Source: Ophelia neglecta (taxonomy: Eukaryota). From it: a DNA stretch of 64,000 nt. The stretch spans positions 29,140,001 through 29,204,000 of the forward strand of contig OZ260662.1 of the NCBI GenBank assembly GCA_965285935.1, read 5' to 3'. The position numbers and the translations under genes were made by a program. This document shows positions 11,815 through 64,000 of this stretch, in pieces. The notes below the pieces were generated by a model. The model was given only the letters and a program-made list of their open reading frames with translations. It had not been told where the DNA came from and ran no database searches. The first letter of the stretch is position 1. Each line of letters starts with the position of its first letter.

Positions 11815-12517
11815 CAGACTACTCAGACTCATCTGATGGCTGCTCTGATGGCGACTCAGACTACTCTGATGGCTACTCAGATGGCTACTCAAATGGCCAC
11901 TCAGACTACTCTGATGGCTACTCTGATGGCTACTCTGATGGCTACTCAGATGGCTACTCAGATGGCTACTCAGACTACTCTGATGGCTACTCAGATGGCT
12001 ACTCAGACTACTCTGATGGCTACTCAGACTACTCTGATGGCTACTCAGATGGCTACTCAGATGGCTACTCAGATGGCTACTCAGGCTACTCAGATGGCTA
12101 CTCAGACTATTCTGATGGATACTCAGACTACTCTGATGGATACTCAGACTACTCTGATGGCTACTCTGATGGCTGCTCTGGTGGCTACTCAGATGGATAC
12201 TCAGACTACTCTGATGGATACTCAGACTACTCTGATGGATACTCAGACTCCTCTGATGGATACTCAGACTACTCTGATGGATACTCAGACTACTCTGATG
12301 GATACTCAGACTACTCTGATGGCTACTCAGACTACTCTGATGGCTACTCAGACTACTCTGATGGATACTCAGACTACTCTGATGGATACTCAGACTACTC
12401 TGATACTCTGATGGCTACTCAGACTAATCTGATGGCTACTCAGACTACTCTGATGGATACTCAGACTACTCTGATGGCTGCTCAGACTACTCTGATGGAT
12501 ACTCAGACTACTCAGAC
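11815..12517. repeat. Composite minisatellite of 12-nt (TACTCWGATGGM) and 9-nt (TACTCAGAC) modules, dominant 21-nt period
   Basis: Read directly from the sequence. Modules are multiples of 3 except for one 8-nt module near 12403. Confidence 0.97.
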
Positions 12518-12525
12518 CAATCTTT

Positions 12526-13150
12526 TGATTCTACCCAACTACAGCAGTACGTTTAGCTAAGCTGACGTGAGATTCTACCGATCTACGATAGTATATGTAG
12601 CCAAGCCAGCACCAGATACTAAGGATCTACAGCAGTATATGTAGCTAAGCCAGCGCCCAATTCTACCAGTTCTACCAATCTATGGTAGTACATGTAGGTA
12701 AGCCAATGCCCAATTCTACTGAACTATGGTAAAACATGTAGCTAAGCCCCCCCCCCCCCCCCAATTCTACTGAACTATGGTGAGATATTTAGCTAAGCCA
12801 ATGCCCTATTCTACCGATGTATGGTAGTATACATAGCTATGCCAGGTCTGAATTCAACCAATCTATGGTAGTACATGTAGCTAAGCCAGGTCCGAATTCT
12901 ACCAATCTATGGTAGTACATGTAGCTAAGCCAGGTCTGAATTCTACCAATCTATGGTAGTACATGTAGCTAAGCCAGGTCCGAATTCTACCAATCTATGG
13001 TAGTACATGTAGCTAAGCCAGGTCTGAATTCTACCAATCTATGGTAGTACATGTAGCTAAGCCAGGTCTGAATTCTACCAATCTATGGTAGTACATGTAG
13101 CTAAGCCAGGTCTGAATTCTACCAATCTATGGTAGTACATGTAGCTAATG
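12526..13150. repeat. 44-bp minisatellite (GCCAGGTCTGAATTCTACCAATCTATGGTAGTACATGTAGCTAA)
   Basis: Seven near-identical copies start at 12841, 12885, 12929, 12973, 13017, 13061 and 13105. About 7 degenerate copies precede them from ~12526, one interrupted by poly-C. Confidence 0.97.
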
Positions 13151-17379: not shown

Positions 17380-20300
17380 AGTGTCGTCAAGGGTAAGATC
17401 ACCAGGAGTGTTTATGTGTCCGCTTTTGCACATTACCGTTTTGTTCGTGGGCAAATGCCACGCATTTTTAACCCTAGTTATCTACCCACACAAAGAACAT
17501 TTTCAATTTACTACATTAGTTACTGTAGCTCTCACTTTTCAAGAGTTGTTTCGACAGACTCTGCGAGTCTTATTTAAAAACCATGTGTTTTGAAGAGTCG
17601 TCTGGTCGTAAAAATCATGTTTGGCACACGTGCTTCATATTTTAGAGCAGTCGTGATTTGGTATTGAAACACAATATGTCTACTATGATCATAATATACC
17701 TGTCATTTGCCTTGTATATCGACTAACAGGTACATAATCATATTCCTAACATAAAAAAATCATAAAATAAAAATCTGACTACTCTCATATTGATTGTGTC
17801 GTGTGGAAGAACGAAAGGGTCATTTTACATCTCACGCTATTGGTTATAATATTAATTAGGTTTGCTGAAAAAACATCATTTGCATATTGAACTTATGCTT
17901 TCGTGCATATAATTGTACACAGTATCATGGAATAAAATAACAAAGACATTTCAAATAGCTTTGCATTGTTTTAAAGGGCGCCACAAGAGAAAAATGTCTC
18001 TCTTAGGCTAACGGACATTATAAAGCAGCTGCCTTCTACCCAGGCTTGTCTTTACCTGCCTAGAAACCAGACGGTTGCCTCGGACAACAAACGAAGATAA
18101 AACGAACAGAAGAAGTAATCAACTGCAATCAAAAAGGGATTAGTTAGCTAATTAACCACTTCTGACTTCTTAGCTCACCGATGCTGCTGTATGTTAGACG
18201 GTTAATAAGAAACGCATTTCAATTGATGCACAAACTGAATAACTAATAAAGGTATAGCGCCTAACTTTCCCCCTTGCCGTGTATCTTTAAGAGCTTTTCA
18301 ATGGATACTTGTGTGGCGTTTTAATCGGTTTAAGGTGGGGCGGGTGCCACCGGGGAAGTGGATTACTTTGGTATTCCTGTTATTCAGATGAATGAGAACG
18401 CTAATTGAACGCTATTGTTTCTGTGTCTCTATTGTGCCGGCTGGCATATACAGGACTAATATTTTCTTTTCGGCTAAGTCCCTAAAAGAATACTACCACA
18501 GAACTACCCACACACGGGAGTAATTTCCTAATAATGACTGTTTGGTTTTAGTCAAAACATAAGCAGTTGGAAAATAGGGCCCGTCTCAAATTAATAGGAA
18601 AATGTCATAACGCAGGGATGGAAAATCGTGGCACTTTCATGGTGTTAAGTCGTGTTGGCATTAATCTAATTTGAAATGGCCCCGTAACAGTAAATATTTC
18701 AGTCCACATACAGTTAATTTAGGTGTAGGTTGAATAACAATAATGTTTCAAATGTTGGTTCACCTGTCAATGTGCACAGAAAAACCTGCCAGACGTGGCA
18801 GAGTTACACTGGGCTATTAGTTATGACGCTCTGACAAAAGGAATCATATAAATATACCGTGAACAATGCACGATGTGACATATAACAACGAACATATAAT
18901 TAAACCACGATGCTGTCCCTCAGCTCAGACAGCAGACACGGTATGAATATGTTTATTTGCGGTATCACAGATCTATCTATGCATGGGGATACACATTACG
19001 TACGTTGGCCTTAAATGTAGAAAATATGAAACTGATCAGGCTGGTCTGGTCGTAAAAAAAGATAGTGTCGAAAACCGACACTTTTTTAGAGGAACCAGTA
19101 TATGCAGGACGGACTGCGATGAATATTAATTTAAACATGTTTTTCTTGCTCCAAATCCAGTTTATAACTTTTAACCCTAAGTGGCAAAATGACTAAAGAG
19201 ATAATTGTAATTAAGGTACCTGTAAACCCCTATAGCTATAAAGTTGTAAATGTAGCAATTTTCAAACAAATACAGCAATAAATACACATTAAATGCAATT
19301 CCAGGGACTGGGAAGTTAACCCTGGTACTAATTTCAACCAGTGCAGTGCACAGACAATGCCCGTTTGCGTAGTGAGTGGAAAATGAACGTGATTGGCGAG
19401 GTGGCGAACCGCGCAGTGGCGACACCTAACGTGTAATATAGTCTACCATGTAATGAGCTTTACTCGTAAGGGAATGACTGAAAAGGGACAGTTAGGTTGC
19501 GTGATACCGACATGCCGAGGCGGAAGGAAAAGAACAATTTCTTGTGTTACATTGTACTTCATTCCTGTTTGAAATTGACAGAAGGAAACACAGCTTCGTC
19601 GATGTGATGAAAGTTAGAATAATGTGTCAACAGTTTCATAAAAGTAGTTAGAAATTTTCTGTAACGATCAACTGACTTTTCAATCGACTCTATAGTAACG
19701 ATACCATCGCTGACAAATGTTATCAATTCTTGTCAAAAGTTACTAAGTTGGTTTAAGATAAAGAGTATTCGTTAATCGAAAATGTGTGATAATACCAAGT
19801 AACATATTTCACTGTAGATAAAGTTGACATTACTTGGTGGTGTGGTTTCACAAGTCCATGTGAAGCCATAATCCCATCGGGTTTATTCATTGCATTGGTG
19901 AAACTCTTTATTCGCAGCGAATACTTCTTCTCTGTGTTATCTTAGGAGAAAACAGATTGCAAATTATATTTGTCGATTAGTAAAGACATTTTGCGCTGCC
20001 AAATTTACTCTTACAGCTATTTCAGTCAGTGAGTTGAACAGTGCAAGTCCGCTATCACGGCATTGGCTGAGCGCGTTAAATATTCATGAGGTGATTAGCA
20101 TATCACCTGGCCTGTGTGTGTGAGAGAGCGAAGGGTATAGCAGACGGCAGTGTGTGATCATGGCGGCCAGCGTGTGGATGTACTGGCTCCGGCCGCTGGT
20201 AACTTGTGGATTTTTATGTGGATTATTACCATTTACAGTTGGAAATGAAGGTAAGTTCCTTTGAATGATAGCAGTACTTCGGGTTTGTGTAGTTTATGCA

Positions 20301-42737: not shown

Positions 42738-42829
42738 TCACATTACTCGACACATCTACACTGGGAGAGCTGGCTTGGACAACATATACAAATGAAGAGG
42801 GTGTAACTGGCGCTAGGAATCCGCGAGGG
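42738..42829 (+). CDS. Eph: Eph receptor tyrosine kinase, coding exon 2 (start of ephrin ligand-binding domain)
   Basis: Acceptor TCCTTTCTTTTCTTCAG and donor GGG|GTAAGT (42830) define a 92-nt exon, phase 1 to 0. The spliced product NE-VTLLDTSTLGELAWTTYTNEEGVTGARNPRG matches the Eph N-terminal motif (recalled EphA4 NEVTLLDSRSVQGELGW...GW). Intron positions and phases match vertebrate Eph genes. Confidence 0.92.
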
Positions 42830-45800
42830 GTAAGTTTAAATTAGTTACCTCCATTATAAAAGAGCGTAGAACTGCTAAGTCACAGATTTTTTTTTGCTTT
42901 TCAATGTGTTTTTATTTGTAACCAAACTCTGAATTACACTGAATGAAGGCATGTGTGTAATATGCATGTCATAGCACACACTCGTGCTTTGTAACATCAT
43001 TGCATGAGTAAGTGCTTGAAATCATAAACAGATTTATGCACTCCACTCACACACTTGAATACAATCTACATAGATTCTATTATGATTATGCATCAAGAAT
43101 GCCTTTTCAATAGTATAATGGTTCTGCATGTTCAATCTTAAGAATATGGAACAGAATTTCGATTTAGTCATGTTAACAATTCTCCAGTTATCTACAGTTG
43201 GTAGGTTACTTTGTCACATAGCTGAGGTTCGGTGGAGAGCATTGTCATTGATAAAGTTTGTAACTATGAGATAAGCTAATTGCTTAATCCTTATGATTAT
43301 TATATTATCTTTTAATACCTAGCTTTTATAATTGATTCTCTATAATGGCAATTATATTTATCTGATAAAACTGCCCAGATTATTAAATACTGATCTTGAA
43401 TATTTTGGCATTTAATTATCTTTCTTAACAATATCTTATCAAGAGCAAAGAGTAAAGCCCCTTCCATCCATAAGGTCTCAGAATTTTGATGTAGTTGATT
43501 ACTTTATGAATATGTAAATGTATATGTTTGTTAGGATAGAACATGCTTATTTATTTGAGATTAATGTTTCTAGTAGAAAACACCAGAATACCTAGAACAT
43601 CTAGATCAAACAATTACCAAGGGGAAGTAGATGCAGCTCATTAATTCTGGTATCAATCCAATAAGACTTAAATGGCATTTATCGCTGGATGCATATCTGT
43701 GCTGTGTTTGTTGGGAAGTGATATATTCCTAGGTGACATACAGCCTGGATCTAGTAGCACCAAATCAATGATAGATCGCCTTGGCTTCTTTCAACTTGGC
43801 CAGAAAATCCCTCAGAGACTCCCAGCTCAGATAAGTCTGATTGTTGGACGGATTGGGTCGTATATCACCCTGAATTACTGTGACTCACAATTAGATTATG
43901 TGATGAAAAAACTCAATGAGGAATGACCATCAGGGAAACAAATGTATCAGGGAAATCCAAGCTTGATTTATCGAATAATTGCTAGGTACCACACACCGTG
44001 CTGGAGTTGTGTGGGGCAGTTGGTTTCACAAAACATGCTGAATTACTTGCTCCTTTCGAGCAAGAGTTGCTGCACTTCCTTCATGCCCAATAAAGATTAG
44101 CATAGAGAAAGAAGGCCAGGCTACTTACTTGTCTATAAACATCTAGATAGCAGAAATCACCAGCAATATATTTTTTGGGTTTCTAACAGTAAAATATTTA
44201 GCCACTTAGTACAGGTTCTGCATTTAAAAAATGAATTTGGGATTTAGTAGACTGTATGTACAGCTGGCTAGTCATACACTTCAAGTTGTATCATTTTAGC
44301 ACCCCAGTGAATTGATTAAACATTGTATCCTGAATAACAAATTTGAGGCCCAAATTAGGAGATATTTATTAATCACTATAAAAGTTGGCACCCATACTAA
44401 AATCTTTTTAGGTAAAACTATAACATTGGGCTCAATGACATGCATATAATTTCTTTGTCGTGAGTTGCCAACACCTCTCCCTGCTACTGATAGGTGTGTA
44501 TTTCAACATGGTAGGCTCCATTTTGGTGTTTCTTCTCATGCCAGCAGGTTGAGGCAATTTCAACTATTGTTGATGCCGATTGGAAGGCTGTTCTTTACAT
44601 GCCCTGATTATTTCACAGAAAGCAATATTCCAATCATTTTGTGCACCCGGCTATATTCTGTTAGCATAATGGGCTTGTTTACAATGTACACGGTTAGTGG
44701 TCCTATATAGAAGTGTTAGTTTTTGAATGTGGAATGCCTGCCACATGCATACCTGGGACAAATTATGAATGAGAGGAGTCCTATTCGGTCTTGTGATTAT
44801 TGCTCTATTCACCTATAATTTAGCCCCAGAACAAGCAGGGTAGTACATAGCTCCCAGAGGGGTGCTGGCAGGTAATGGTTACCTTTGCACCTTTGATTCA
44901 TCAGCAGGGGGTGTATTGTACAGGCAAGAAATATAGTCTTTGAAACAGTAACCACTTTTAATAGTGTCAAAGAATATCATCTGGTGATTTGATTGTTGAC
45001 CATGATAGCTATTGATAACTTCCCTTTATAATTAAACACAATTGGTATACAGTCAGCAGTGACAAAATAGCAACAATATCCAGTATTTGTCATGGTATGT
45101 TATCATAAAATCTTGCCACCCAGGTCTCTCACAGGCTTGGAGAGTGACAAGGGGCAATCTTGACCACATAGAGAAGACAATTTATGTCTATGACCTTTAA
45201 TTAAGCCACCCGAGGAAACAATGTATGGTTATCCCTTGACTTTCTCTTGTTGTAATAAAGTTGGTATTAAATGATGAGTGGGACATCTGCAGGAATGTGT
45301 AATTAATGACTTGAAGTTTCATGTACTAAGATGTACAAAGATGCTTGTGTGGTTTGAATTGAAGTTAATTTCAAGGAAGGTAGCCAGAGTCTAAGATTGT
45401 AACTACATTGTTTGCTCAGCTTTTGTGATTCAATAGAACAATATGTGGTCTTCAGGACATACATGAGTGCCAAAATGTTATTGCTAAAATTCTCTAGTGT
45501 CAGGTATTTCTCCTGATAAGTATTGTTATTACACTTTAAGCCTGACAAGTTTATTATTCTCAGGACATGCTCTATGGCACTTCCCTTAATGTGCACCATT
45601 TGGCAATTTAGTCTGTTACAATGATCACCCACAATAAAATTGGCTAAATTTGCCAAAGTGTCTGAAGTTAGCACTTGCACATTATGCATGACAGTACATT
45701 CTTGTAGCAGTGAGGTCAGCTAGTAATGATTATTTCATTGGACTGGGAGTATTTTGTTTGGGGGTAGAATGATAAAACAGGGCCAGACTCTGGTCATTGA

Positions 45801-46839
45801 TGGGCCTGCCTATTGTCTGGTCTATGGTATTGGTCTGGGACGGTTATTAAGGGTAGTTATTGAGGGTAATGTCCATCCTATAGAACACCAGGTGCCCCAA
45901 GCAATCACATTAATGTGACCACTGTACCAGATCAGCTGCCTCTCCATACAACATGACACAGGTCTGGTATGTGTCCCTCTTAAAATCTAAGGAAATAGCC
46001 GAATCTCATTTACATATATTGGTTCAGCCCCATTTGATCAAAAACCCATTAAAAGGTCAAATGTCTGGTCAATCAATGATAAGTCAGGGTTGACAAAGGT
46101 GAAGGAACAACAAGCCAGCATAACATTGTTGTAAGGTAGAAACCACCCCCTGCATGGTAACTCAAGAACTAAATGCAACTGATGAATTTGTTCCCCATAA
46201 ACTGTAGAAGTCTTGTAATCATTAAACAATCACAACAAATTAGTACAGATGCAGGGTAAAAAGTATGCATTTTCCCAGTATTACAAGGCATCTGAATACT
46301 TTAAAAATAAAAGTAAATGAAATGACTCTTTGTAATTGTATTAGTTGGACACTTTTTGACCAAGTAATTATCATAAAGCTTTTTAGAAAGCTTAGATAAT
46401 GAATTTTAGAAAACCCATTGTTCTGTATTGAATTGTTCACTGACCATGGTAGGTTATTATATGGCTACAAAAACACCTTTGAAGCTTGCATCTGTTCTTG
46501 CAGCCCTAATTATAACAAGTTAAGCTGCGCCCATATTGCGGAATATTAAAAGGGATATCATGGAGTGACTTCAATTGATTTCCAGCTGGTGGCTAATAGT
46601 ATTGGTGATGAAAATAGGTAAATTATGGCCGGTTTACACAGTCGCAGGGGACCAGGATACTCTGATTGTCACCCATCAAGTGCACATGCTTCAATATTAT
46701 AATTGATGATAAAGTGACCAAATTACCAAGCTAATTAAATCAATTTCAAATTTCAACGGATGGTTTATCCTTAGCTGGCACGTGACTAGATTACTCTATG
46801 TATTTATAACATTAAGATTTCATAATATCAAGCTTAGAA

Positions 46840-46889
46840 GGCATCTAGCTTGTTTTAAAGTGGCAGCTAGCTTGTTTTAAAGTCGGCAG
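46840..46889. repeat. 22-bp tandem duplication (CTAGCTTGTTTTAAAGT core)
   Basis: The core occurs at 46845 and 46867. Confidence 0.9.
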
Positions 46890-49800
46890 GTGTCAATGTC
46901 ACAATTTCACAGTGACTCTCCCTCAGTGGATATGTAACATTGATAGATTTGAAGCCAGTTGGCCTGATTCCTTAGATACAGGTGAAAAGGCTCACACCAT
47001 GGCCCAAGTAGAAGTTTGCATGTGGAGCTATCATAAAGAGGACAGCAGCAGCCCTCCAGCCACACAATCAATGTGCATGTCACTATATTGAGGCGGCATT
47101 GTGTCTATGTGTCTGCTACCCATTGTGTGCCTCCCATCCATGGACGGACAAACAAAACAACAGCTTAGAATTATGATTTAGGACATGTGCCTCAATTGCT
47201 AATGGAGGCTGATTAATTGTGGCGACTTTCAGATAGCAATCATAATGAGAATTGTATTGGGAACAATAAATAAGTCAAACATGGCAATTCCATGTGCTTT
47301 CTTTTGAATGACTCAAAAGTCTGCACACCGTTATTGCATCACACCATTAGGTCATTGGAAACTGGAAAAACAGGGTTCTTTTGTTGTACCTGATTATTTT
47401 AACAAGTATCTTACTGCTGTTCTCAAATTCAACCAAGTTTACAGAACAGATATCTAAACATTTGAATGATTTTGATATTTAACAACTTCCTGTAGCAAGG
47501 TTTTGGTTTTGTCATTCTGGTTAAGCCACCAATGCTCCTGATATGTGGCTGTAAAATATCTTGTGAAACTGGGCCAAAAATTATGTTCATAAAATATGGG
47601 GTCCCTATCTGTGTTTTCATGGCCCCTAACTCCAATGAGCCAGAGGATGCTAACCTTTATGGCATAATCAGCATAGTTATTACCATGGCTGGTCACTTGT
47701 TGGCTGGGTGTGCATGTGTAAACTCTCATAAAGCTGTCCAGAGTCACCATCATGAAGGAAAAAATGTCTGGCCATGGAGAGGGGGTCAGATGGAAGGGGA
47801 TTACTACACAGTAACTAACCTCAAACTGCCCCGTGACCAGCCCATAACTCCCTGCCTCTACCTACACCTTTGTTCAGGCACACTTGTATAGAATCAATAC
47901 TGCAGCTCTTGGCTGCATGGCTGAAACCCTTTTCTTCTCCCTACAAAAGTAATCTTCTGTTTTCAACACTCTAGCACACATTGGCTCAATCTATAAAATA
48001 GGCAGGCCACTGACACTTCTGGGCATTTGTTGGGCATCACTTTCAATTCTGCCTAAATGAATTCTTTGGCTGCTCACTTCAGCAGCTTTTATGTTACTCA
48101 CTGATAGAATCTTCAGCTGTTGCCTACATTCAATAAGATACCTTAGTGGCTTTCAAAGTGTCCTTGGTTTACCTACAAAAACTGAAGTCTGTTCATTTCT
48201 CTATGGGATATTTTAATGTAAGAATGTGAAGTTGGAAGCTGGGATGAGACTTGTTTGGAATGATTGGACTCTGAAACATCTTTGTTCATTAAATCCTAGC
48301 TATATCAACACTAAAACATTGGTTATGAACTATAGAATGTTTCAAGTTTTGAGGCCTTATGACTGCTCATCTAATGTACATGTATGTTGGAATTAGCAGC
48401 CTCTCCTTAACAGAGAAATGGAGCTATGCTGCTCATTCTGTGGGTAAATAGCAGCTATTAGTGGAGTGCCAAGATGGACACCTGTTCTTCATGTCTAATT
48501 TAGGGAGTGCAAATTAAACTTATCCCCGTAGTTTGCCAGGAAGCTGCTGCACAGCGGGCAGGACAAGAGAGGCAGGTGGGACTTGAAGTAAAGGGCACAC
48601 CAGCAAGGAATGCTGAACACCTACTCTTTTCAATTATGGCTCAGCCTGGCCACGATTGCCAAGCCCGTACTCATTAAAATGTGGCAGTTAGCTCTAAAAC
48701 TGAGTCATTTTGTAAGAGGACTGAACCACCCAGATGACATATCTCCACCATTGGCACTCCCCAAGTGTATGTCTCCGTGAGTATTTCTCTGAGGTGGTCC
48801 AATGTGTAAGTCATGGAGGTTATCAACACTGGTTATTAGAAGAGTTTATAGATACATCTTTTACAGTTTGTCTGCAAGAAATGTACAAGTTCCCATTGCA
48901 GCAAGTTACATTTGCTGCAAGTGGCATTTATGACAAGGCGTGAAAAAATGAGAGTTGCCTGGATTACTGGAGCGATTGGCTTCCAAGAGATGACAGAAAA
49001 TAATGTTCCCTTCTGCTGTGCTATCAAGCTTACCAGCTGCTTCCTCGTGGCTATGACATATCTCAATATTTCATATTTACAGTGACCTGTCTAGGTGCTA
49101 GCATGCTCACTGCAGTGCATTTCATGTTCACTGTTATGTCTGGCAAGAAGTGCCTGATATTATTTTCAATATCCAGCATCTAGTCCAAAAATTAAAAATT
49201 TACAAATCTTTTTTCCAATTTTCCTTTCTTCAGAGCTGCTAGTAGAGCTTTGTACATTTATAGCTTGTTCACTTTTTCAGGGTGAACGCAAAATACTTTT
49301 GAATATGTTTGCCTCCTCTCCTTGTTTGCTCCCTTGATTTAATCATAATGAAATATTGATTTTTAACCCTTGAAAATGTGTTCAATGTGGCTGTCCATTT
49401 AACAGCATTCTGTGTTCAACTTGGGAAGCCATTAGTGGCCCTCAATGGCTGAATGCATGTCCAGCAGTAATTTCGTTGTTTTCTACATACTCTACAGTAG
49501 AACCCATTTACCCAATTGCCTTTCCATGGTAGAAATGTGTCCATGTGTATTGGCCAGCAGTGAATCTGCAAATTGTATGTGACAGAAGCCACTGTGGAAT
49601 GAGACAGGGTGAAGAATGGTGGTAGATTTAGATAGACATGTCTGAGAGCTGGCAGATAGGGTGGCAGATAGAAGGGGGACAAATTGTTCAAATTGGGAGC
49701 ACTTTGGCGGGTGGAGGCTCACTCTACTCGGCTGTGTCTGTGGTGACATCCTCCCTGAATGGGAACCTCATGGATTGTCTGCTGTTGACCTCCACAGCTA

Positions 49801-51040
49801 CAACCCACTCCCTCTCTACCAACACTCAACAGCAATTTCAATTGCCTGGCAGCCAAATACAGTTAGTGAGTGCAGCAGATTTCTGAAATATGTGGAAGAA
49901 TATGGAATGCTAGTTATGTTTAGATAAAATAAAAGAGTTGTAACTAGGAAAGCCACTATTTCAACCCAACTTGGCTAAATCAGCAACGAGATATTTCAAA
50001 CAGATTATTTGTGAAAGCTGTGTCACAGAAAAAAGTTAAATAAAAAATGTGGCACTGTGATATCATATGAAATTTTGTGGGAGTGACTTGTAGCTAATTT
50101 AACTCAGAATTGTTTCCTCTGATCAGATCCTGAGTTTTTACTATGTCCCTAAAGGTGTATATTAATAAGGTGTTTGGGTGGACGTAGCCGGAGGTGGCTC
50201 AGACTGGAACGCTCTCACCAGGTGATGGTATGGTGTAGACAGGTTAGCTGGTGGCCCTCACCACCTCAACCCATCTCTGTATCATCTCAACTCAACCTCT
50301 GCTCCTCACATGCAGTGGGCTGGAAAACTATAATACATAAGACCTCCAGCTCGGGCCTGCTTTGAATTATGCTGGTAATGTTTGTGGAAGCAAGTTACAT
50401 TATAGTGGCCCAAGGGCACAGAAAGCTGAAAAACTACCTCTAGAATGGTCCAATATGTCATCCCCTTTGCAACAGATATACATGTACACCAGTCAAGTGT
50501 AAAAAATCTGTGGGCTACCTTAGGAAATACAACCAAATGTTGCTGGTAAAAGTAAATTTGGAGCTTTCTGTTATTTTAAGGAGAGAGATGGATGCCAGAC
50601 TAAGGATAGAATGTTGTCTGTTTATCAGGGAAACAGAAATTTCCCATTTCATTTCCAGTTCTGTCATAACTTCTTTGAAATATCCAGTCTTTGTATAAAC
50701 ATATCTTGGCTTGTATTTGAAACACACTTGTTATCGCAGGTTACTGATACTTCTCAAGTATGCACATAGGCTGCATCCGTGTGATGCTGTGGCAGGAAAA
50801 AACCTAGATTGCTCCAGAGGCCTTGCTCAATATTTACAGAGAACACTAATTATGACACGTAAAAAGTCACCTCTGATAACTAGCTTATCTTCACAGTTAG
50901 AATCACATTTATACTTGTTACAGTTGCATCTCATATAAATAGCAGTGACTTAGCAGGTATTTTCAAATAGATACATTCTTAACTAAATTTTGCTCATTTT
51001 ATTATACTGTATCAGTTCTTTCTCTGCATATCACTAAATT

Positions 51041-51098
51041 GCCACTCTTCTCTTTCAGGTAAGTGTTGTGGTCCTGTCACCTGTACAGTAAGGTAACC
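51041..51098 (+). promoter_or_regulatory. Candidate recursive splice site (3'ss abutting 5'ss) with a cryptic exon
   Basis: CACTAAA branch-like motif, 12 consecutive pyrimidines and CAG|GTAAGT (AG 51057-58, GT 51059-60). A second donor AAG|GTAACC lies at 51093. Confidence 0.6.
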
Positions 51099-52289
51099 TA
51101 AATGAGTAAAGGTAGGGAGAGATCTTTTCTCAGGTGATGGTCTTACATGGCTAACCTGACCACGCCAGGGTCAGTAAGTATTTATTCTTAAGCCCTGTTA
51201 GGTATTGAGTTTACTTGGTACACCAAGAAATGGTGGCCTGATGAATAGTTAGTGTGTATCCACGTCAGCAGGGCTGAACAGGACCACTATTATCTCATTA
51301 GAACACAATCAGTCTCAATTATCTTCTAGGAATTATGCAGGTAATTATTGTTAATCCTTGATGATTGATATGAGACCGGCCAGATTGTAATTTAATCTTA
51401 CCACAGTGATTAGAATGCCATTAGAATCCATCATGAGCACATCTTCAACTTGTTAGGACATGGCGACATGTACTGACTATTTGTCTTACAGTAGGCCCCA
51501 ACAAGTAAGTCACCTGTCGTCACCACTGATGGGCTCACTCCGCCAGGATGGGCTTGTAGCCGCAAAAAGTCACAAGAAAAACTCCCCTTTTTATAATCAG
51601 GTATTCTTCTCCGGTATCAGAGCCTGGCATTGCATAGTGAAGTGAGGGGTACAGAGTACAACGTTGTCGAAAGCAAGCGTCTTTGTTCATGAAAAGAGCC
51701 AGACTGCAAATACCAACCCACAGTCTAGTACTTGTTCAGACTACGTGGCTGAAACTGTGAGTGGCTCAAATGCAGACAAAAGTGGATCATTCTGACATAT
51801 TTATGGGCAAAACTTTGCCATTGTCGCCGGCAATGGAGACATTCCGTGCTAATTTCACCAGATAGGCATATATTATGTTATCTACAAAAACCTTGGTTAT
51901 CATAGCTGGTTGGTGTTTCTGTTCTGTAATAAGAATGGAGTGCCCTAGATTGGCTACTGAGTCTGGAGGCTTTTTTTTCTTCTTCCATCAGATGCCTTCT
52001 GAATGTATTTTCTTTTAAGAGGTTTAAAGGTCAGTAGGATCACAGATTGTAGTCACATTTATAGAACAAGAATTAAGAATCATTTGGCAACAAGGCCCTC
52101 TCTAACATCAACATCTGTTTATTCTTCCAGTACCTAATGATCTTTTTTGCTGGTCCGGTCAGTCAGCCTATGGCTAAGATGTCATACTACTCTGTGGTCC
52201 TTGAAATAATTCTATTGGTATTTAGCGTAGATCCCTTGTAATTGTTTTCTGAATAGCCATTGCCCGATTGATTTTGGCTATGGAGAGAG

Positions 52290-52620
52290 AGGTTGTACCA
52301 CTATCAGGGGGATCACCGTGAACATACTACGGATCAAGTCAGAATTGATTGCTTCTAAATATATGGCTTGGAATCTGAGCATCTGAGGCTGACGGGGACT
52401 GGAAACAGACAGTGTTATGGCCCCAATGAGCAATGTGTGCCCTGATCCTTCGCTGATCGATAGGCAGGGCGAATTATGTGTAGATTGCGTAGAGCCTCAG
52501 TTTGGGGCTCAGAAATTTTGTGCATAATACAAGGGCAAGTATATTTGCCTTATATTGATGGCAATCAAGTGGTAATCTACAGTCGTAATAAGAAGATATA
52601 CACTGGGTGTAGTTTTGGAA
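52290..52620 (+). mobile_element. Possible pogo/Tigger-type transposase remnant
   Basis: A CpG-retaining patch with GITVNILRIKSELIA and ASEADGDW, reminiscent of the CENP-B HTH region. The similarity is weak. Confidence 0.2.
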
Positions 52621-55600
52621 ATTGTAAGCGAAATGTCATTTGTAGCTCTGTATTGATAGAAGCCTGGTAGGCTTCAGTGGGGTTTGCACCCTGATCTGTG
52701 CTATAAAATAACCATGTTGTCAGACTCAACTCTGACCCATTTCTAGTCAGACGGGCCTGACTGGCTCCATGACAACAACATAACTCACTACATGATACAG
52801 CCAAACACCATATGGCATGGTTGGTTGAAATCCAGCTATCCCAATCTCTACATTCATTAAAGTTACATACTTATTGAGCATGTTGAGTACATTAGTCATG
52901 TGATTGATTGAGTGTTTAAATATTCATAACTGGTCTCTAGGTAGAATTCACTCCTTAGATACATAGATTAATACATCTGAGGTTTAGTATATATATGTCA
53001 GCCTGAGAGTATTGATAGATTGCAGCTTTGTTTCTCCCTGTTGAGACTGGAAAACTGCTGTTATCTTTGGACTCGGATCTTCATGAGCCAAGCAGTGTGC
53101 GCTTGGGAACACCATCTCCGACCTAATGTAAAAATTATTCACTATTCTCCATGGTGCTGAAGTCCTCTGCAAATTTTTGGTGCTGGCAAATTGGAGAAAT
53201 GAGGTGCTGGAGTCAACAATCAATAATGACTACAATGATTGTCACTGTGGGATCAGTGTCTTTGTGCTTTGCTGGTCATTACTAGGCAGTCTATACTTGT
53301 CTTCTGGGACTACCAGTGACAGATAAATATAGATTGAAACTGATCTTGACCTGATTTTGACCTGCAGTTTAGTAACTGACCACTGACAGGTTGAAGAGGA
53401 CTAAGACAATGAAGAATCTTTTCTGGTCCCTGCCTTTTGAATAGAATTTTGCAAAACCCCATAAGTCATAAAATGTGTGTTGAAAGGATGTTGGCTCTCT
53501 TGTTGACCAGCAGAAGACAGGCCTGTTTGTTACTGATGGCTTGATCTTTGATGATTGCCATCGGTTGTTTTCTGTCCTAGTTAATGATCATAAGCTGCCA
53601 TCACCATGTACCGTAGATGCTATAAACAGCAGTGTTTTGATGTGTACAGGGGAGGGGCATCCGGGAAGTCATGTTTCTTTAATACCTCTTGGCTAGCATT
53701 GCTATCTCCAGCTATCTAGAGGTCCAGCAAATCATCCCAGCCCAGCCCCGTATCCTGTGTGTGCTGATGGGTATTCAGGACCTGAAGAAAAACATGAACA
53801 ATGATGGAAAAATCAATGGCTGGTGCTGCAAGAGAGGAATGGCCTTTTCTTGTGTCCTACAGGACGGGTGTCATTCAGTAGTCGTGTTTCTCTCTCCGCT
53901 CAGGAGGCTTATAACCTGGAGCAAACAGGCGGACAGCTGAGCTCTGCTCCGGAAAAAAAAACTCACTGAAAAGAGCACAACCCAATGGCATGCCCAAAAG
54001 GGCCACAGAAACAAGTGCAATTCAATGGCATTTCCAGAGAAAATGCAAAAGTTGAATATTTGCCAGGACTAAATGTGGCAAATTCGCTATTTTTTATTAG
54101 CACAAATGAATTCCAACAAAATGCATGCCCTAATATTCATAAGCCACACACTAGGGCAGAATTAATCTCATATGATATTGTTTAAAAAATATTAATTTGC
54201 AATCATGTCATGCCACAAACATTTTTGCTATTACAGTATTCTAATCGTTATGGTAGGTCTTTCCATTCCTGAAAATCATATGTTTATATTGAATCTTATG
54301 ATAAAAAGATGGCATGAGCAGCAGTGAGTAGTATGTACCTTTTTTGTCATAGCCACCTATAGGGATCAATGGGGTCAACGTTCAATGTTAGGTTTGAGGC
54401 TTACTCTCAAGACAATACTAGTAGTACATCAAATTAAATTGGCAGCTGGAAAATGGAATCTAACAAAGCTGATGTTAACACATGACTCACATGATGTTAC
54501 CAGCTTATCGCTGCATGTGCTTCTAGTAGTTTTGTAGAGTTAGCCAGGTGCAACATCTCATGATGTTCCACATCATGCTGACATGGCTCCTATGTTCTGA
54601 TTGGAATTCTGAGGTAAAATAGTTGTCTCAGGCAGGGAACTTGGCCAGCTATGAACAGGGTGATATAAACCTAGTTCTCAGTTTGCTATAGGGGACAGTC
54701 TGCCATATAAATCTGCCCAGGCAATACCTTTCTCTATTGGGGGCTGGGGGTTCAAATAAATATAGGACAGTGGTCAGTTATGAGAACTATGTGATATCTG
54801 CTGGTGGTGTCTTTTTGTCATCAAAGTAGCCATAGGAGATGATGTGGTGAGGGGGCTGCCATGCCTCTTCAGACCAGGCACATAGCAATGGCCTCTGTCA
54901 GATGATAATAGGCAACAGCCTCTTGGCCAGTTGAAAATTAACACCACTTGCTCACAAACAGTGTTGCTTTCTGCTCAAATTGAAATAATTGGTTTTAGGG
55001 TTACCTGAACCCAAAACTCCTGGCTTGGCAGAGCAACCTTTCATCTGTAAACATCTAGGGCTCCTCTCATTTCAACACATCATCCTTTACCTTGTAATGC
55101 TCCACACTTATCTTTTCCATCATTCCTCCCCTCTACCCCCTCCCCCTCCCCCCAACAACACCCACACACATACACACACACTCTCTCTCGCCAATCTAAG
55201 GTTGTTTACTAAAAACAGCAAAGCTATATTAGTGTGAATGGATCTGTCAATCTGCTGGTTTGGAGGTTTTGAGCACATTAGCAAAGACGTTACACACATA
55301 CTACATGTTTTTACTTTGTAATACCTGCTTGTCTATCTGTTAAGTTCTTAGGTAAGTCAAATACAAGGTAATACACAGCCATTGTGTTCATTTATTGTAG
55401 AATATCTAATTATCATTTCAATTTTGTTTGTTCTGAAGCCTGTATCATATCATATTTTTTGGCTGTGAAGATGACATTTTGTGTAACCCTAAAAATAATC
55501 CTTACATTGGTATAAACAGAAGTGGCATTCTCTGAACCTGTTTTTTTTCTTATGTTGTTATATATATATTGTTGCTCCTTAGGGTAAACCTGCCTAGCTG

Positions 55601-58600
55601 ATCCTTCTGTGTTCTGCTCCAATATGTCTATTTTTCTATCATATACATGTGTGTTTATCAGTGTGTTATATTAAAATGTATTAGGTAAAAAGAAAAACAG
55701 AAATAAAGATAGTAAACAAAGAAAAGAAAAATGTCATACCAAACTATTCTCAGGAGATGATTTGCATAAGGAGCCGAATCATGCCCACTCACTCCCTAAC
55801 TTACAGGCATCCCTCTTCCCTCCTATAATATTTCTTCTGATGATGTTGTTAGTGTGAAAGGACTGGGGTGCCCTCCCACTGTAGTCAAGCTGGTTGTATG
55901 TGTTTGAAGCAAGGGGCCTACTAGCTTGGGGATTACATATTCATGTTCATCATGTACAAGAGGCGTAGCCATGCTCAGGCAGTGCCAGGGACCCAGTGTG
56001 GATCACACCCCCCACATAGCAGACAGTGTCAGGGACCCTGTGTGTGCAGGTCTCACCCCCAGCCAGGGAATCCATCAAGCTTGGCTGCAGTATGCTAACT
56101 CCAGGCCAGAAGTATGCCATTATCACAAAGGTACACCTGTGGGATAATGACATAAACTTAAACACTAACTAAAACTCTTACTTACCGAAAGTTTTTTTAC
56201 TGATTAATCTTGTTAAATGAAAGCATTTTCCACAAAGCTGATAATTTTAGCTTTTATGCTAAAATGGCATGATTAATTAGATTTCTTATGATTAGGCAAA
56301 TAAGCAGGAAAATGCTTTTGTTTTTAGAAGGTGTTTTTTAATGAAATATAGTTGCATGAAAATCATGTTATGCTGTCCGTTGGCAGTGCAAGTTAATGAG
56401 AAGAGAAAGCCGCAGGTTTCAAAGCTCCCCTGAATAATAGATGAGACGGTTTATAATATACACGCCTGTCTTGTCACATAAACCATACTTAAATCAGGCA
56501 CGGCTGCCTGCATTATACCACAACAATACCATTTTTTGTTTTGTTTCCTTATGGGTCATGCAACTATGCTCCTTATCACTTCCCAAATCTGCTCTGGCAG
56601 ACCACATCATATTTACAATGAAAAAAAAGGGAAAATTAAGGCCCTTCAAAATTCACTTATCGGTTCATCTGATGTAATAATTATGACCATAATGGATGGG
56701 CTTTTACTGCTATAAAGCTTTCTTCTGTCCCCTTAAATCTAAGAAGCTTTTTGTGTAACACCAAGTCGCTCTTGTCAAGAGTTTCAATGCTATTGTATTG
56801 TATTGGTTCTAAAACTGTAATAACTGGAATCCTCCCTATTACACCATCAATATGTTTTTGAGAACACATGCTAAGTTTAGGGGCAGGTCATTAACTAAAT
56901 AACATACATTATCAGTGATAGGAATGCTATTATCATTGTTTTTGTTGTTTACAAAGCTTTCATTATGTTACTTATGCTCCTTGGTTTTGTACAGTTTTGT
57001 ATTATACAGCCACACTGTACACATATAGTCTCTGTCTCTCTATTGTTTGCAGTCTTTACATATTATGAAAGAGAGTTTTTAATATTTCCTATTTCTTAAG
57101 TGAAAGTGTCTGCTACATCAGTCTAGGCATATGGAAATTTACTTAAATGAAAGTTTGTAAAAAAATTAAAAATAAACAAATAATGTTACATCACTTCAGT
57201 TTACCTGTTAGATGAAAGCTACACAAAAATGCACTGTTATGTGCCATATCAAATTACATTTTTCCAGCTTTTCCAGATTTTTCTCTGTTTTTTTTTGTCT
57301 GGATATGCTGTTGTAGACAGTAAACTTTCTCCATTGACTGTAGTACAGATCATCTCTGTCTGAATTGACTGGAGGCTGTCCCTGGCCCAGTAATGTTTAG
57401 GATGAGGGGCTGGGTGTCAGCTAAAGTGTGAGGTGTTGGTGTTTCAGTGACATGTGGTGACTTCTGGAAGGGCAGTTTACACTGTGGCAGATGACGATGT
57501 CTCAACTCGCAGCCTCCCAACTCATATCTCTGCCACTTCATAACACTGCTCTCAGTGAAACTGTGGGGTGCAGCAGGCTTTGAAGAGGCATGTGGCCTTT
57601 GTCAAAAATGGATTTGGTGACAGTCTTCCAGTGGTCAAGATAAGAGCCTGTTGACAGCAAAAACTGGGTCTTTAATCCTTCGTGGTCACCTTTCACAGGG
57701 ATCAAGTTTATACTAAGTGCTTCACTAAAGATATCTAAAGACAGAGCACAGGTGCCCCACACGTGATGTACAGTTTAATATGATAAGATACTATTAAAAC
57801 TGACACAAACAAGTAACTTGGCTTGAAAATTGACAGCAGATATTAAAGAATTCAGCTTAATATAATCTTGTTAATAATAACTGGTGGGAGGAGTCTCATC
57901 ATGAGTGTCAAATTAAACTCAAGATTGTAAACACAGCTCAGTTAATGATAATATTTATCAGTCTGCTAAAATGTGGGCTTTGAAAAGGAAGAATCAGGAA
58001 TGTTGGCATGATCTACTGAAGCATTGGTTGTTAATTAGATTTGTCATAGTAATGAATGGTATGGTTGAAGGATATTGTCACTAGAGGATAATTAATCTGG
58101 GCCACACAGGGTTCAGTCGGGCGTCTCAGTAGGCTAAACCATTCAACACTGACAGGTCTGGTCAGTGAGCAGCCTCACTTTCATTTATGTTAGAAGCTCA
58201 AGTAATGCAAGGGTGAAACAGGTGGTACTGGCTTTTTGGTGGACACAGAGTGTGCAAGAAATTTAAGGGGATACATGGTGGGCATGGAAGAAGTTAATGT
58301 ACTTATAGTATAGGTGGCAAATATTTGTGTTAGACCAGCCATTTGTGACAAACTTGGTATCTAGTATAAATGTAAAATGTATTCCAGGCACCTATGTTAC
58401 AGAGAGGTAGCTTGTTTGAACTGCTCCACCCATAACTATATTTTTAAAAACTAAGTTTCACATGTTAATAAATCAGATTTATCACAGGGACTTGTGTCAA
58501 CATATCTGCATATGGTCCTATATAGATCTTAGTATACTTGTAAATTCATACATAAGCTTTGACACAAGGCTCTGTGAGAATATAGGTACAATCTAAATAT

Positions 58601-59080
58601 CCCATTGCCCAATCAATAAGAAGAACACTTTGACTGATCATTTAGACACACTCAGGGTTCTTTATCAAACAGTGTTATGGTTACAAAAGAGATATACAAT
58701 GTGTTTTCGCATGCATCATTTCTTGTACTTATTTCTTCTGTATTCAAGCCCAACCATCACTTTATATACATGTACATTTAAAATCTGTTCGGCTATGCAA
58801 TATACAAAATACTTCACTATTTAAGGGAATAAAGTCAAGAGATGTTATGCAAGGTCCAACTGCCAGGGAATAGCATATATCTATATATCATACATTTGTG
58901 TTGCTGCTGAAATGATAAATAACTTTTGGAATATAAGTTTACAGTCTCTTTTACCCTCCAAAATCAGCCCATTTTCCTACATTTATCAATGATGTGTCCT
59001 CATAAAAAAGTCTAATACAGTAATTACATTATTAATAAATTCTATATACATTGCTCAATGTGCATTAGGCCTACAGGACA

Positions 59081-59880
59081 TTATACCATTTCATATTCCA
59101 GGTCATCTAACAGTATTGCCTCATTAAGAATATTTAAGAGACTTTCACTCTCATCCTCATTATTTAAGTGATCATATACTTGTATATCAGACACAATCGA
59201 TACAGTATCACTTCCACATGCCTCAGAATCTGAGCAATGTTCAGGTGTTGGTTGTTTTACTAAGCATCTAGCACAATTCCCATTATCATTGTGGGGATTT
59301 GCACACCTTGCTTTACACAAACACCTGTTGGTACATGGTCTGCACATTTTGAAACATGCTAAGACACCATTGGGTATCCATGTGTAAACATAAATTTACT
59401 TGAGTTGAAAGGAACCTTATGACAGATGAAGGGAATTTCAGGAGCCTCCGTATAACCATACAAACTGCAAATGATCCATATACATTTCCCAGTGAGGCTT
59501 GATTATAATATAATCCTGAAAATCGCTTGTTCAAAAAGTCAGACTTCCCATAGCCCTCTCCATCCCATAAACCTTGAAATACCACTGGGGTATGCCTGTC
59601 TAGCTCATTGGCAGAAAGCAAAGACACTCCTAAATATATTGATCCAAAAAGAACAATCCATGATGTTGCCAAAATTTGACTTCTTGTGAGTCTTGCCTTC
59701 AATATAAATCTACAAAGCCGAAAAATTACCCATACAGTACAAGTGAACACCGAAACAATCAACATGTTGATTCCAAACAATGTATTCTTATATGATTTGC
59801 AATATATGCCAGGGCAAGTATGAAAACGAATCCTATCATGCCTAAAGTGAGCAGATATTAATTTGACTTCCTTCACTGAT
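59081..59880 (-). mobile_element. Decayed transposon gene 3' end with a Cys-rich CXC-like tail (Academ-like)
   Basis: ACFKMCRPCTNRCLCKARCANPHNDNGNCARC is followed by an acidic tail and a stop. An upstream frameshifted segment (VSVFTC...SA...GKTHKK) resembles the XPG/H3TH-like GCD..S.F.GK motif. The family assignment is inferred. Confidence 0.5.
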
Positions 59881-62480
59881 ATATGCCTTGCTCAATCAAG
59901 ATTTCAACCTCCCTACTAATAACCACAGGAGCATCATTTCATATTTTTACAGGAGTGTGTTATTTCAGGACACAGCCCCCTAGAGTTTGATTTCCTGGAT
60001 TAAATGTATCATGTGGGGCCAGTGTTTTGTCCAAAGATGAGGGGAGAGGTCAGGATGTTTTTCTTGTCAGCCCTGTTACCCTGCATGATTAGACATGATT
60101 AAAACTAATGTACTGTACATGTAATCATGGTGATAGAACCCAGGTCATCTGGTGCTGGTGTGATGAAACATGTGGAGTGAGGCTTCACTCAGTCAACATA
60201 TTGCTTGATGGCCAATCAGATCACTTCAAATGGTCACGTGGTTACCATTAATAGATGTAAACAAACAAATCCATGTGCTCACATAGTGACTTGTAAACAA
60301 TCACTATAATTCATTTGGGGTGGCCATCATAGGCTTGTTTCATATAATGAGGCATTCAAATTTGTTCTGAGGTATCAAAGCATCCAATACATCTAGTATG
60401 AATGCCTAGTTGTACTTGTTTTGGAACATTTGGACATCAAAGCAGTTGTAAACACATGAATCCTGTGGGGGGTAGAGGATTTGTGGTCAATTCAGGTCCA
60501 TCAAAGTGATAAACACATGGGTTCTAATGATTTTATCAAAGGTCTCTTGCATCTAAGAAACTGTAGGGGGATTGACCATCATGTAAAACTCATCCAAAGT
60601 TGTTGACAGGGGGAGTTTACCACTATGATTTTACACCCCAATCTGCACATAATACTGCACTTTTTATTGTCCATGTCTTCTTTCCCTTGAGGGGTCATAG
60701 AATTCTAAAAAAATGCTTGGCACTTTGTTCATAACTTAAGCTATGAAAAATTATCATTTACTAGATCTTAGTATGTATGGGCCAAAAGTGTCAAAATTAT
60801 TTTGGTAGTCACCCCCCTTTGGGACTGAAAGGCACACCCCATGTTAAACAAAGCTTCAGCTGGGAATAGGTTAACAGGGACCACTTCCAGTTGATTTTAA
60901 TCAAGGGATGTTATAAAATATCTGGTTTCTGATAGTTGCTCTAAGTGATAGCTTCAGTATCTTAAACCATATTTATCAAAGAGAGCGTGCCTTCAAGACT
61001 TTGACATCCGCCATTTTGTTCAGACATTTTGGATTGAAAGCTGTGTGCTTTCTGGGGTCCTGCATTCGAGGAAATATGATGATTCCTGTGGACAGAATGT
61101 CACTGAATCCATACAACTTAGTGTAAAGCCTGTGAAACACGTGGCCACATTTGTCAAAAATTATTTGTGACCAATCAACTGATTATTATGGAGGATATTA
61201 TAAACATGTCAGTAATAGAGGGCTTTGTTTTTAATACAAATGCTTACGTTGGACAAACATTCATAAAGGATATACATTTATTATTATCTAATGGACCTAA
61301 TTCCAAGGTGAGATTTTATTAAACTATATAAAACTACTTTTTTTATACAAAGATAGTGTACACCCTACAGCTCAATGATTGACTTATTTTGGCCATTTTG
61401 CTCAGCATGCTCAAGGCTACTTTTGAATGCTGATTGGTTGGTTCCCAAATCAGAACGAGGTTGGCTAAGGGCCAATGGCTGTTGAGGTGGGGATAGAAGT
61501 CTGACTGGTTGGGTGCAGCAGTATACTCAGTTGTTTAACTTTGTGTTAAATGTATCTGCCATCCAGTTTATGTTTTTGCTGACTACCAGTCAAGCTAGCA
61601 TTCCTGCTGAGGTTTCATGTCAATTCCATGTTAATGAAACCAACTCATAGCAGTGTATATTTCTCAGGGAGACCCCAATCCCATAACAGAAACTATCAGA
61701 TGTCCTGCTGCCCTCTGTCAGGCCAGGATATGGGGTGTAACAGGAACTGGTGCTCTAGTGTTCAGGGCCGTTCTCAGCCCTTTACACACGAGGAGAGGGA
61801 GACACTTAAAACATACACATATATCTCGTTATTGAAAGGAAGCAGGTTCAGGGCTATGGCGGTGTCAGTCCTGTTTTTTGCAATATTTTCTGCATCTTTT
61901 GACATATCCTGTCAGATGGCAATATCTGGAGATTGTACTTGTAGTGGTCTTGCTTTTGTTGTCACATAACAATTAAGTTTCACTGCTCTTATCTGTATTG
62001 TGTTACTCCCAGAGTGGAAAAACTAGAGCTGCACCTTAGCTGTTTGACAGGCTCAGTTCTAACCGAGTTTGATGGGAGGGGAGAGGTCAGTAAAGGTGTA
62101 GCTGGTTTCCCTGGCCCCCTTTATGCCAGGAATCTTCACATGGCAAGTCAGCCACTTAAATGCCAAGAGAGATGACATGTGATAGCAGGGGAAGTTGTTT
62201 GATCCTAGACAACCAAGACATACTTCAACAGACACCTCTTGTTGGTGTCCAACATGAAAGTAGGCCTGAAGTCTGTGTGTCTGTCTGCCTCTAACCCCCT
62301 GTCTGCAACCTAGCACACCTCTCCCCTGCTCAGGGTCCTATCAGCTGATCAGACTTGTCCTCTAGTACAATGCTCTATTTTGTAGGATTATTCAATTAAT
62401 ACAATTAATAGATTAATATGTTATGTTCCATTGTATCTTCCTGAGGGATTAAAGGTTTGGGAGCATTGCAGTCTTAGCTA

Positions 62481-62553
62481 GACCAGAGGCCCATAGCCCA
62501 TGGTCCTCTGACCAGAGGCCCATAGCCCATGGTCATCTGGTCAGAGGCCCATG
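62481..62553. repeat. 29-bp tandem repeat, about 2.5 copies (GACCAGAGGCCCATAGCCCATGGTCCTCT)
   Basis: Copies start at 62481 and 62510, with a partial copy at 62539. Confidence 0.92.
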
Positions 62554-64000
62554 GGTCCTGAGCCTCTGACTAGGCTGATGTTAGGATTCCTGACAGACCT
62601 TTACATGTGGTCCAGATTCAGGGGGGTCAGCTATGTTTTGGCCACCGCTGTGGTCCAGTGGGAGCATCTAGGTACTGGATTACCCAGTCATCAGTTGCTG
62701 TCCATCCATCATTTAGATACCAGCCACCCCTCCAGTGTTAATTAATTGTGGAGACATGTTAGCAGAAAGCTGGCAGAGGACTTCTCCCTGTTGGTGGTAA
62801 TGAAAACTAGGAAGAAAGCAATTAGAATACCTGATGAAGTCTATGTAGCAGCACTCTTATATTATTAGTACTCCCAGCTTTTCGGATTCAGTGGTGAAAA
62901 TCCAAACATTCTGTCCAGCTGTTAGTATTTTCTGGGTGTATGGTGCCAGGAATTGCCTGTAACTTCTTCCGATTCTTGTCTGTATATCAGCAGTTAGCAA
63001 TCAGGAGAAAGCCCACATCTCTGGCTCACATCCTTCCTTCTCTTCTTTTGTGTTTGACCACCTGGAGCTTCAGCTGTGAAAATCTCCTACAGAAACAATA
63101 CTGATAGAAAAAAAGGCAACTGTTGAAAGATATCCATTACTGCTGTTTCTGGGAGGGGGGGGGGTTCTTTTTATTTTTTATTTGATTAAACCTGAATTCT
63201 TAGGTCTATTTGCATGATGAAGTATATATAAAATGTATCAATGCAGACTGTGGTAAAATCACCAGATTAAAACATATACATAATAGATACCAGTACACAC
63301 AATAGTTACTAAACTTCTCCAGTTACAGGTGGTTTTATTTTATTTCAATTCCTACACTGCCTGGCCCTAAATATATATATATGATTAAAGAGAAAGGCTA
63401 TCATGTTCGAGACTGAATCAAGTCAAGCTGGAACCATTCAGTGTAGTAGCACATTGTACAAGGGGTGGAGTAGTCATACAAATCTTATGAGCATCAGACC
63501 GAGGAGATAGTTTTGCTCAGCAGCAGACTTTTCTGTGCCTCTGTCCTGCATCTTCACCCCTGCCATTGATCAGCCCTGTGAGATTCTTTGACAGTGCCAA
63601 GGTTAATTAACTTATCTAGCCTCCTGGTAATGATGATTGACAAGCTGATAGGTTTATTAATGTTCATGGGCAGGTGATAGCTATAAACTTAGGATCATTC
63701 CTATATCATCTATTCTTGGAGCACTTCTCTGATACTAATGCCCATCTCACTTTGTTTTGCTGCCTCCTTAGGTTGGCCTACTCCGCCTGGGTTTGGTAGA
63801 CTAACTGTATCATAAAGGAGGAATCAAAGCCTCACTGTATAGCATAGCAGTAATGAAGCATGAAATTCAATTAGCTGCATATATCCAGTCCACTAGACTT
63901 GATGCCTAGGATGTTGATAAATATTGAATTATCATTCAGCTTATATTAAGAAACAGGAGCTGAAAGGGCCTGGCAATTGGTAGTCTTAGGGCAATGGTTA

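Follow-up and report, generated by a model that had tools for sequence, protein, structure and literature searches.

Intron 2 of the Eph receptor gene of the annelid Ophelia neglecta probably contains a fly-type recursive-splicing ratchet point, accompanied by a cryptic exon that is normally skipped. As we read the DNA, Eph exon 2 would first be joined to the CAG that ends at 51058, which would regenerate a donor, GGG/GTAAGTGT (the slash marks the splice boundary). The regenerated donor would then be joined to exon 3, and the 26.6-kb intron would come out as pieces of 8.2 and 18.4 kb, leaving nothing in the mRNA. The probable function of a 29-53-nt cryptic exon downstream is acceptor definition; in the rare event of its inclusion, this exon would add a stop, and the transcript would be cleared by NMD. 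We infer both that splicing takes place at this site and that its steps follow this order. We also consider it fairly likely that a fly-type ratchet code operates genome-wide in this spiralian, consisting of a TT-containing acceptor plus GTAAGT, a hidden exon of about 40 nt, and ladders of sites 17-41 kb apart.

The window, by which we mean the whole 64,000-nt stretch analyzed (G000:C2:29140001-29204000), contains the first part of the Eph gene; window-equivalent positions continue its numbering past its end. The gene model was built on homology, sequence, and phase, without RNA, and intron 2 spans 26.6 kb because exon 2 ends at 42829 and exon 3 starts at window-equivalent 69432. The features of the gene and of the fused site are as follows.

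20160..20250, + strand: Eph exon 1, coding part, predicted; 91 nt, signal-peptide-like, with a phase-1 donor AAG/GTAAGT
42738..42829, + strand: Eph exon 2; 92 nt, phase 1 to phase 0, placed by sequence and phase
Window-equivalent 69432 (G000:C2:29209432), + strand: start of Eph exon 3, past the window end
51016..51056, + strand: AG-free zone of 41 nt; the preceding AG is at 51014-15
51032..51038, + strand: branch-point-like CACTAAA; candidate branch A at 51037, 21 nt ahead of the acceptor end
51045..51058, + strand: pyrimidine tract and CAG acceptor; 11 pyrimidines (51045-55), TT at -6/-5
51059..51066, + strand: candidate ratchet-point donor GTAAGTGT; fused CAG/GTAAGT at 51056-51064
From 51059 onward, + strand: GTAAGTGTTG
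42830..51058, + strand: predicted recursive segment 1 of intron 2; 8,229 nt
51059..64000 and on to exon 3, + strand: predicted recursive segment 2 of intron 2; 18.4 kb in total

Exon 1 was chosen on hydrophobicity, donor strength, and phase agreement with exon 2, and the gene from exon 3 onward was located at window-equivalent 69432-93415 using tblastn with homologues. The ephrin-binding domain has one match in the 762-Mb genome, making this the only Eph gene found, and the ligand-binding domain lies nearly entirely in exon 3. Among named homologues, those of Lineus (64%) and Owenia (61%) match exon 3 best. In a midpoint-rooted tree of 12 rows, which had no outgroup and took in 11 homologues out of 14 (the other three, partial or redundant, were omitted), the protein falls in a group with those of Lineus and Owenia and two unnamed ones, and the seven molluscs lie apart; this places the animal among the non-molluscan lophotrochozoans. 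Compared with the Lineus protein, the 92-nt exon 2 encodes about ten extra residues ahead of the WRE motif. Two minisatellites lie upstream of the gene, at 11819-12517 (units of 12, 21, and 42 nt, yielding long low-complexity open frames) and at 12670-13148 (44-nt units). Multicopy repeats occupy 57700-60000 of intron 2, where read-contig depth reaches up to about 15 times that of the flanks, and a Ser/Pro-rich single open frame of 3,220 codons lies about 90 kb downstream of Eph (window-equivalent 181222-190882, G000:C2).

The GTAAGT of the fused site begins at 51059, on the sense strand, 8,229 nt past the exon 2 donor (42830) and 31% of the way into the intron. A sequence-only reading made before this analysis had described the CACTAAA, the GTAAGT, and an AG-free zone of about 40 nt here, about 8.2 kb after the exon 2 donor, and the coordinates that it gave are all correct. 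Its 12 straight pyrimidines are 11, the twelfth being the C of the CAG. CACTAAA is an imperfect fit to the branch consensus YTNAY. The AG-free zone of 41 nt compares with a median of 45 nt among sites of the class described below that have a second donor and 27 nt among controls. Four YAG/GTRAG sites occur on the + strand of the window, only one of which, the Eph site, has a long AG-free zone, and none is listed for the - strand. Nothing stands out in the RNA structure near the site (z = 0.0), and no comparable site occurs in the 22.5-kb intron 1.

The site appears to be single copy. Stretches of 251 nt and 1,601 nt around it each have one genome match, although uniqueness in a search is not proof of rarity, and no tandem repeat was found overlapping it; an origin in a multicopy repeat, which would have undermined the sequence-only reading, was rejected on these grounds. 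Contigs from three sequencing runs of one sample, compared over 42500-60000, cover the site and present no joint or difference from 49370 to 52831 among the rows listed, with the qualification that rare forms drop out of contigs.

Donor strength was estimated as duplex energy with the 5' end of the genome's own U1, for which pairing is only a proxy. The regenerated donor takes its exonic half, GGG, from the last bases of exon 2 and scores -12.2 kcal/mol, compared with -10.3 for the native exon 2 donor. The perfect donor CAG/GTAAGT of the sequence-only reading is thus not the relevant one, as it would never be used in that form after step 1; GGG/GTAAGTGT would take its place. Of the 15 native Eph donors, 13 range from -2.9 to -14.0; the other two had misplaced positions and were left out. 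Downstream, six candidate donors could end the cryptic exon.

51059..51111, + strand: candidate RS-exon; 3' end uncertain
51088, + strand: candidate RS-exon donor at +29; 29-nt exon, -5.1 kcal/mol, GTAAG
51093, + strand: candidate RS-exon donor at +34; 34-nt exon, AAG/GTAACC, -6.5 kcal/mol
51106, + strand: candidate RS-exon donor at +47; -4.1 kcal/mol
51112, + strand: candidate RS-exon donor at +53; 53-nt exon, -9.7 kcal/mol, the best U1 pairing within 80 nt
51134, + strand: candidate RS-exon donor at +75; -8.2 kcal/mol
51174, + strand: candidate RS-exon donor at +115; -7.5 kcal/mol
51089..51091, + strand: in-frame TAA; stop after residue 71 for candidate exons of at least 34 nt

The regenerated donor outdoes all six (-4.1 to -9.7), and we propose that the cryptic exon is normally skipped because its own donors are the weaker ones. 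There is no full GTRAGT before +115 but several middling candidates instead, and chance alone would put a GTAAG like that at +29 in 7.3% of windows. The 34-nt exon ending at AAG/GTAACC, reading VSVVVLSPVQ and then TAA, exists as the earlier reading described it, but it is one candidate only, with +29, +34, +53, and others competing, and the exact end of the exon is something we can only infer.

The consequences of inclusion are nevertheless uniform across the candidates. All six exon ends lead to a premature stop (the 29-nt form through a frame shift, with the stop in exon 3 after residue 84), whereas skipping keeps the frame. A stop upstream of later exon junctions is expected to elicit NMD, and the stop here precedes more than 10 later junctions of Eph; NMD of the inclusion forms would therefore be expected. 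A search for AATAAA alone found none in the sense orientation over the roughly 1.6 kb from 51059 to 52700. Since NMD is expected and this signal is absent within 1.6 kb, a secreted peptide would be unlikely to accumulate; of the two outcomes of inclusion that had been suggested, NMD and a tiny secreted peptide, the first is the one to be expected.

We counted fused acceptor-donor patterns across the genome. Y12CAG/GTAAGT has 21 matches in the genome versus 6 for the reversed pattern, and Y10NYAG/GTAAGT, which includes the Eph site, has 59 versus 25. Controls, in which Y10NYAG is followed by GTAAAT or GTAACT, have 89 versus 67 reversed. We went through the full set of 59 sites and, from the list of 89 controls, the first 30, which come from contigs C1-C2. 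A GTRAG follows 20-80 nt downstream at 27 of the 59 sites and at 0 of the 30 controls, against a flank background of 7.3% of 2,360 windows; the 20-80-nt window was set after the first 21 sites had been inspected. When five duplicate sites, three duplicate controls, and Eph itself are dropped, the counts are 24/53 versus 0/27 (p=5.5e-6). The distance from site to second donor is 28-60 nt, with a median of 40, and a full GTRAGT occurs within 20-80 nt at 21 of the 59, the Eph site not being among them. A looser pattern with GTRAGT at +26..+56 has 80 matches (57 in one tandem array and 23 outside it), compared with 13 at +126..+156 (7 in the array and 6 outside).

TT occupies -6/-5 at 43 of 54 sites, including Eph, versus 7 of 27 controls, which are C-richer than the class, and versus 19 of the 54 sites at -8/-7. 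The dinucleotide may mark any true acceptor; it is found at three of the first five native Eph acceptors listed. Adjacent pairs of sites within 120 kb lie on the same strand in 12 cases and on opposite strands in none, where a uniform null gives 0.29 pairs (maximum of 5 in 100,000), although at least 2 of the 12 pairs are sequence duplicates and a third is possibly paralogous. Close pairs of controls are identical or near-identical matches, with one set confirmed as repeat. When the strand skew of introns was taken as a stand-in for the direction of the gene, class and control could not be told apart (p=0.18 and 0.64).

The class of fused sites is non-random, and we regard it as a class with RS-exons rather than one of ordinary short exons, since the latter need no GTAAGT start. 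By our own estimate, about 40-45% of the pattern matches (25/59) are probably background. A rough mixture estimate makes the Eph site very likely a member of the selected class, and we hold it nearly as likely that the class works by re-splicing; the confidence that we place in a ratchet point at Eph follows from these two estimates taken together. Two features of the site tell against it: its second donor is weaker than the class norm, and it lies at 31% of an intron shorter than 40 kb. So do the lack of a comparable site in intron 1 and the look-alikes elsewhere in Eph, one antisense in intron 3 and one at the coding end of exon 7.

That background share is also what gives weight to the alternative that the Eph site is an unused look-alike arisen by chance in a long AT-rich intron. 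Relaxed criteria do yield an antisense look-alike 22 kb away, and the full GTRAGT second donor of the class is absent at Eph. However, with the 25 reversed-pattern matches taken as background, only 0.0004 matches are expected in the sense strand of intron 2 and 0.002 in the whole window on both strands. The site also has features that the pattern did not require, namely, its sense strand, the 41-nt AG-free zone, the TT at -6/-5, and the GTAAG at +29. Together with the mixture estimate in favor of class membership, these make a chance origin unlikely. The antisense look-alike lies in Eph intron 3 at window-equivalent 73252 (- strand), with a 35-nt AG-free zone, CAG/GTAAGA, and a GTAAG at +47, and could reflect chance or an antisense transcript.

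Ladders of such sites extend through other long introns. Three of 11 clusters were examined with a relaxed scan over 200 kb each, which added five new sites oriented like the anchors and one oriented against them, at spacings of 17-41 kb. TT is present at all five new ladder sites, and a GTRAG lies at +37..+41 in three of them. Besides Eph, only two genes are named hosts of fused sites.

C2:8049658, 8079814, and 8101384, sense: sites in the ERG-type channel gene
C12:65058770, 65099447, and 65128792, sense: sites in the GABA-B-like receptor gene

The three C2 sites lie in an intron of about 140 kb between PAS-domain exons of what we take to be an ERG-type K+ channel gene; its exons 1-2 were located by motif, and PAS_9 falls below the Pfam cut-off, while Ion_trans is above it. 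The three C12 sites lie between ANF-receptor exons 175 kb apart in what is presumably a GABA-B-like receptor gene. The expected middle exon of that gene was not located within the 175 kb, which may therefore be two introns. A further ladder, of five same-strand ratchet-like sites with similar RS-exon starts spaced 17-29 kb apart, lies at G000:C5:87523607-87609664 (- strand), where a same-strand open frame of 399 aa, 46 kb downstream, has no Pfam match.

A second alternative is that the 29-53-nt exon is a regulated poison cassette, included in some tissues and lowering Eph through NMD, with little re-splicing. It draws support from the premature stops that all six candidate ends create upstream of later junctions, from the +34 donor (-6.5), which falls within the range of 13 of the 15 native Eph donors (-2.9 to -14.0), and from flies, in which, according to the available text of PMC8605326, some RS-exons are included even though the ratchet donor is the stronger one. 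However, a poison exon explains neither the preference for a GTAAGT start over GTAAAT or GTAACT (27/59 versus 0/30 with a second donor) nor ladders with 17-41-kb spacing, and the end of this exon is ill defined, with donors weaker than the regenerated one. We therefore consider a poison cassette improbable as the main role of the site. It is likewise doubtful that two things hold jointly, namely, a genome-wide ratchet code and a second role of the hidden Eph exon, with its competing donors, as a regulated switch that tunes the amount of receptor through NMD.

Least probable is the pair of readings in which CAG/GTAAGT is the ordinary 3' end of an upstream exon or CAG precedes a cryptic last exon encoding a secreted fragment. 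The coding end of Eph exon 7, CTCTTTCAG/GTAAGT, does resemble the motif, and a cryptic last exon repressed by SFPQ has been published for epha4b (PMC7997972, in the part available). However, no AG within 460 nt upstream is listed as giving an in-frame, stop-free exon ending at 51058, and the missing sense AATAAA in 51059-52700 counts against a last exon; both candidates were rejected on these grounds. As far as the accessible part of that paper goes, epha4b resembles the case here in having a cryptic exon in an Eph-gene intron that truncates the receptor, but its exon is terminal, is polyadenylated, and keeps the ligand-binding domain. The Eph exon considered here has an internal donor, and its stop comes before exon 3, so that the product would be without nearly all of that domain.

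The ratchet-point reading finds its closest parallel in flies. In the available portions of the fly literature (10.1101/006163, PMC6110457, PMC8605326), TT occupies -6/-5 at 196/197 ratchet points, recursive introns measure 11-133 kb with segments of 2.6-64 kb and a mean segment of 18 kb, single sites lean to the intron midpoint, and most introns longer than 40 kb are recursive. The intron and segment sizes at Eph fall within these ranges. Fly ratchet points (Ubx-RP, kuz-RP1/2, Bx-RP, and luna) resemble the class described here in having a fused AG/GT, a strong pyrimidine tract, and TT at -6/-5. Fly RS-exons are about 50 nt long, compared with a median of 40 nt here, and both are short, are out of frame, and have the weaker donor. 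Both systems involve long introns with several sites each, spaced 17-41 kb apart here. The fly sites are backed by RNA, whereas those of O. neglecta are known from DNA alone. In the donor-competition model, as set out in the accessible part of PMC8605326, acceptor definition by the cryptic exon is followed by the removal of that exon, since the ratchet donor wins; the donor energies at Eph fit this model. The word "Eph" is absent from the main text, so far as available, of Duff et al. (10.1101/006163) or Pai et al. (PMC6110457).

Vertebrate RS-sites have been described in long neuronal genes (Sibley et al. 2015, as cited in the available part of PMC8605326). By the same partial account, they resemble the model proposed here in that the RS-exon is skipped by donor competition and, when included, can introduce premature stops. 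For mammals, the number of fully suppressed intronic sites noted is only nine, compared with roughly 30 or more strict sites in this genome, which in this respect looks fly-like. Shepard et al., in the passages available (PMC2773006), found a sense-strand excess of ratchet motifs in four insects (mosquito, bee, and beetle among them) and in sea urchin; vertebrates have no such strand enrichment (Table 2 of the same paper). Their survey resembles ours as a computational measure of sense-strand motif excess in long invertebrate introns. It included neither annelid nor mollusc, and the downstream RS-exon donor lies outside its available passages. The earlier statement that recursive splicing is little documented outside model species thus needs qualification in view of these motif counts, although it holds for annelids and molluscs in that survey. 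A lungfish preprint, as far as its text was available, names flies, mice, and humans as example species with recursive splicing (10.1101/2024.12.11.627982).

Our literature search, which covered main texts and mostly not subscription papers, found no study of recursive splicing in lophotrochozoans and no Eph ratchet point. Within the partial texts surveyed, RNA proof comes mainly from flies and vertebrates, and motif counts from a few insects and sea urchin. The Eph site is thus an ordinary member of its class, with a known mechanism, in an animal branch for which we found no published case. Genome-wide statistics lend good support to the ratchet point, stop-bearing cryptic RS-exon, and stepwise removal that the sequence-only reading had predicted. 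If this is true, a fly-like ratchet system in an annelid, sharing the RS-exon layout and the TT signature, would fill the third bilaterian branch and would suggest that the rarity of recursive splicing in vertebrates is a derived state. A genome-wide ratchet code in a spiralian, if true, would suggest that the code dates back to the protostome ancestor or earlier. Eph, the ERG-type channel, and the GABA-B-like receptor make up a short list of RT-PCR targets.

Two further patterns were observed elsewhere in the genome. ATAAGT is the 5' end of U2-type AT-AC introns, and AG/ATAAGT takes the place of the GT donor after four ratchet-like sites at G000:C5:9906910, 10021531, 11141403, and 11180480 (+ strand; 4 versus 0 reversed), with a further case at locus L099. 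The four C5 sites are all contained in 1.3 Mb and are possibly paralogous. ATAAGT could also be a U1 site with a part in exon definition that is itself unable to splice. On C7, a tandem array of 4.4 kb (G000:C7:12180500-12184950, + strand) comprises about 107 units of 41 nt with 94 exact AG/GTAAGT joints. Each unit has the shape of a mini-intron (GTAAGT, CTAAC, a pyrimidine tract, and TAG), and its length matches that typical of RS-exons in this genome. The array lies in the sense orientation about 260 nt upstream of the acceptor of a rhodopsin-family GPCR exon (7tm_1), presumably of a D2-dopamine-receptor-like gene. Amplification of a ratchet unit may have produced the array, or it may be a plain satellite, and 41 nt is possibly too short for splicing. 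A smaller repeat similar to this array lies at C7:7645471-7645840 (- strand).
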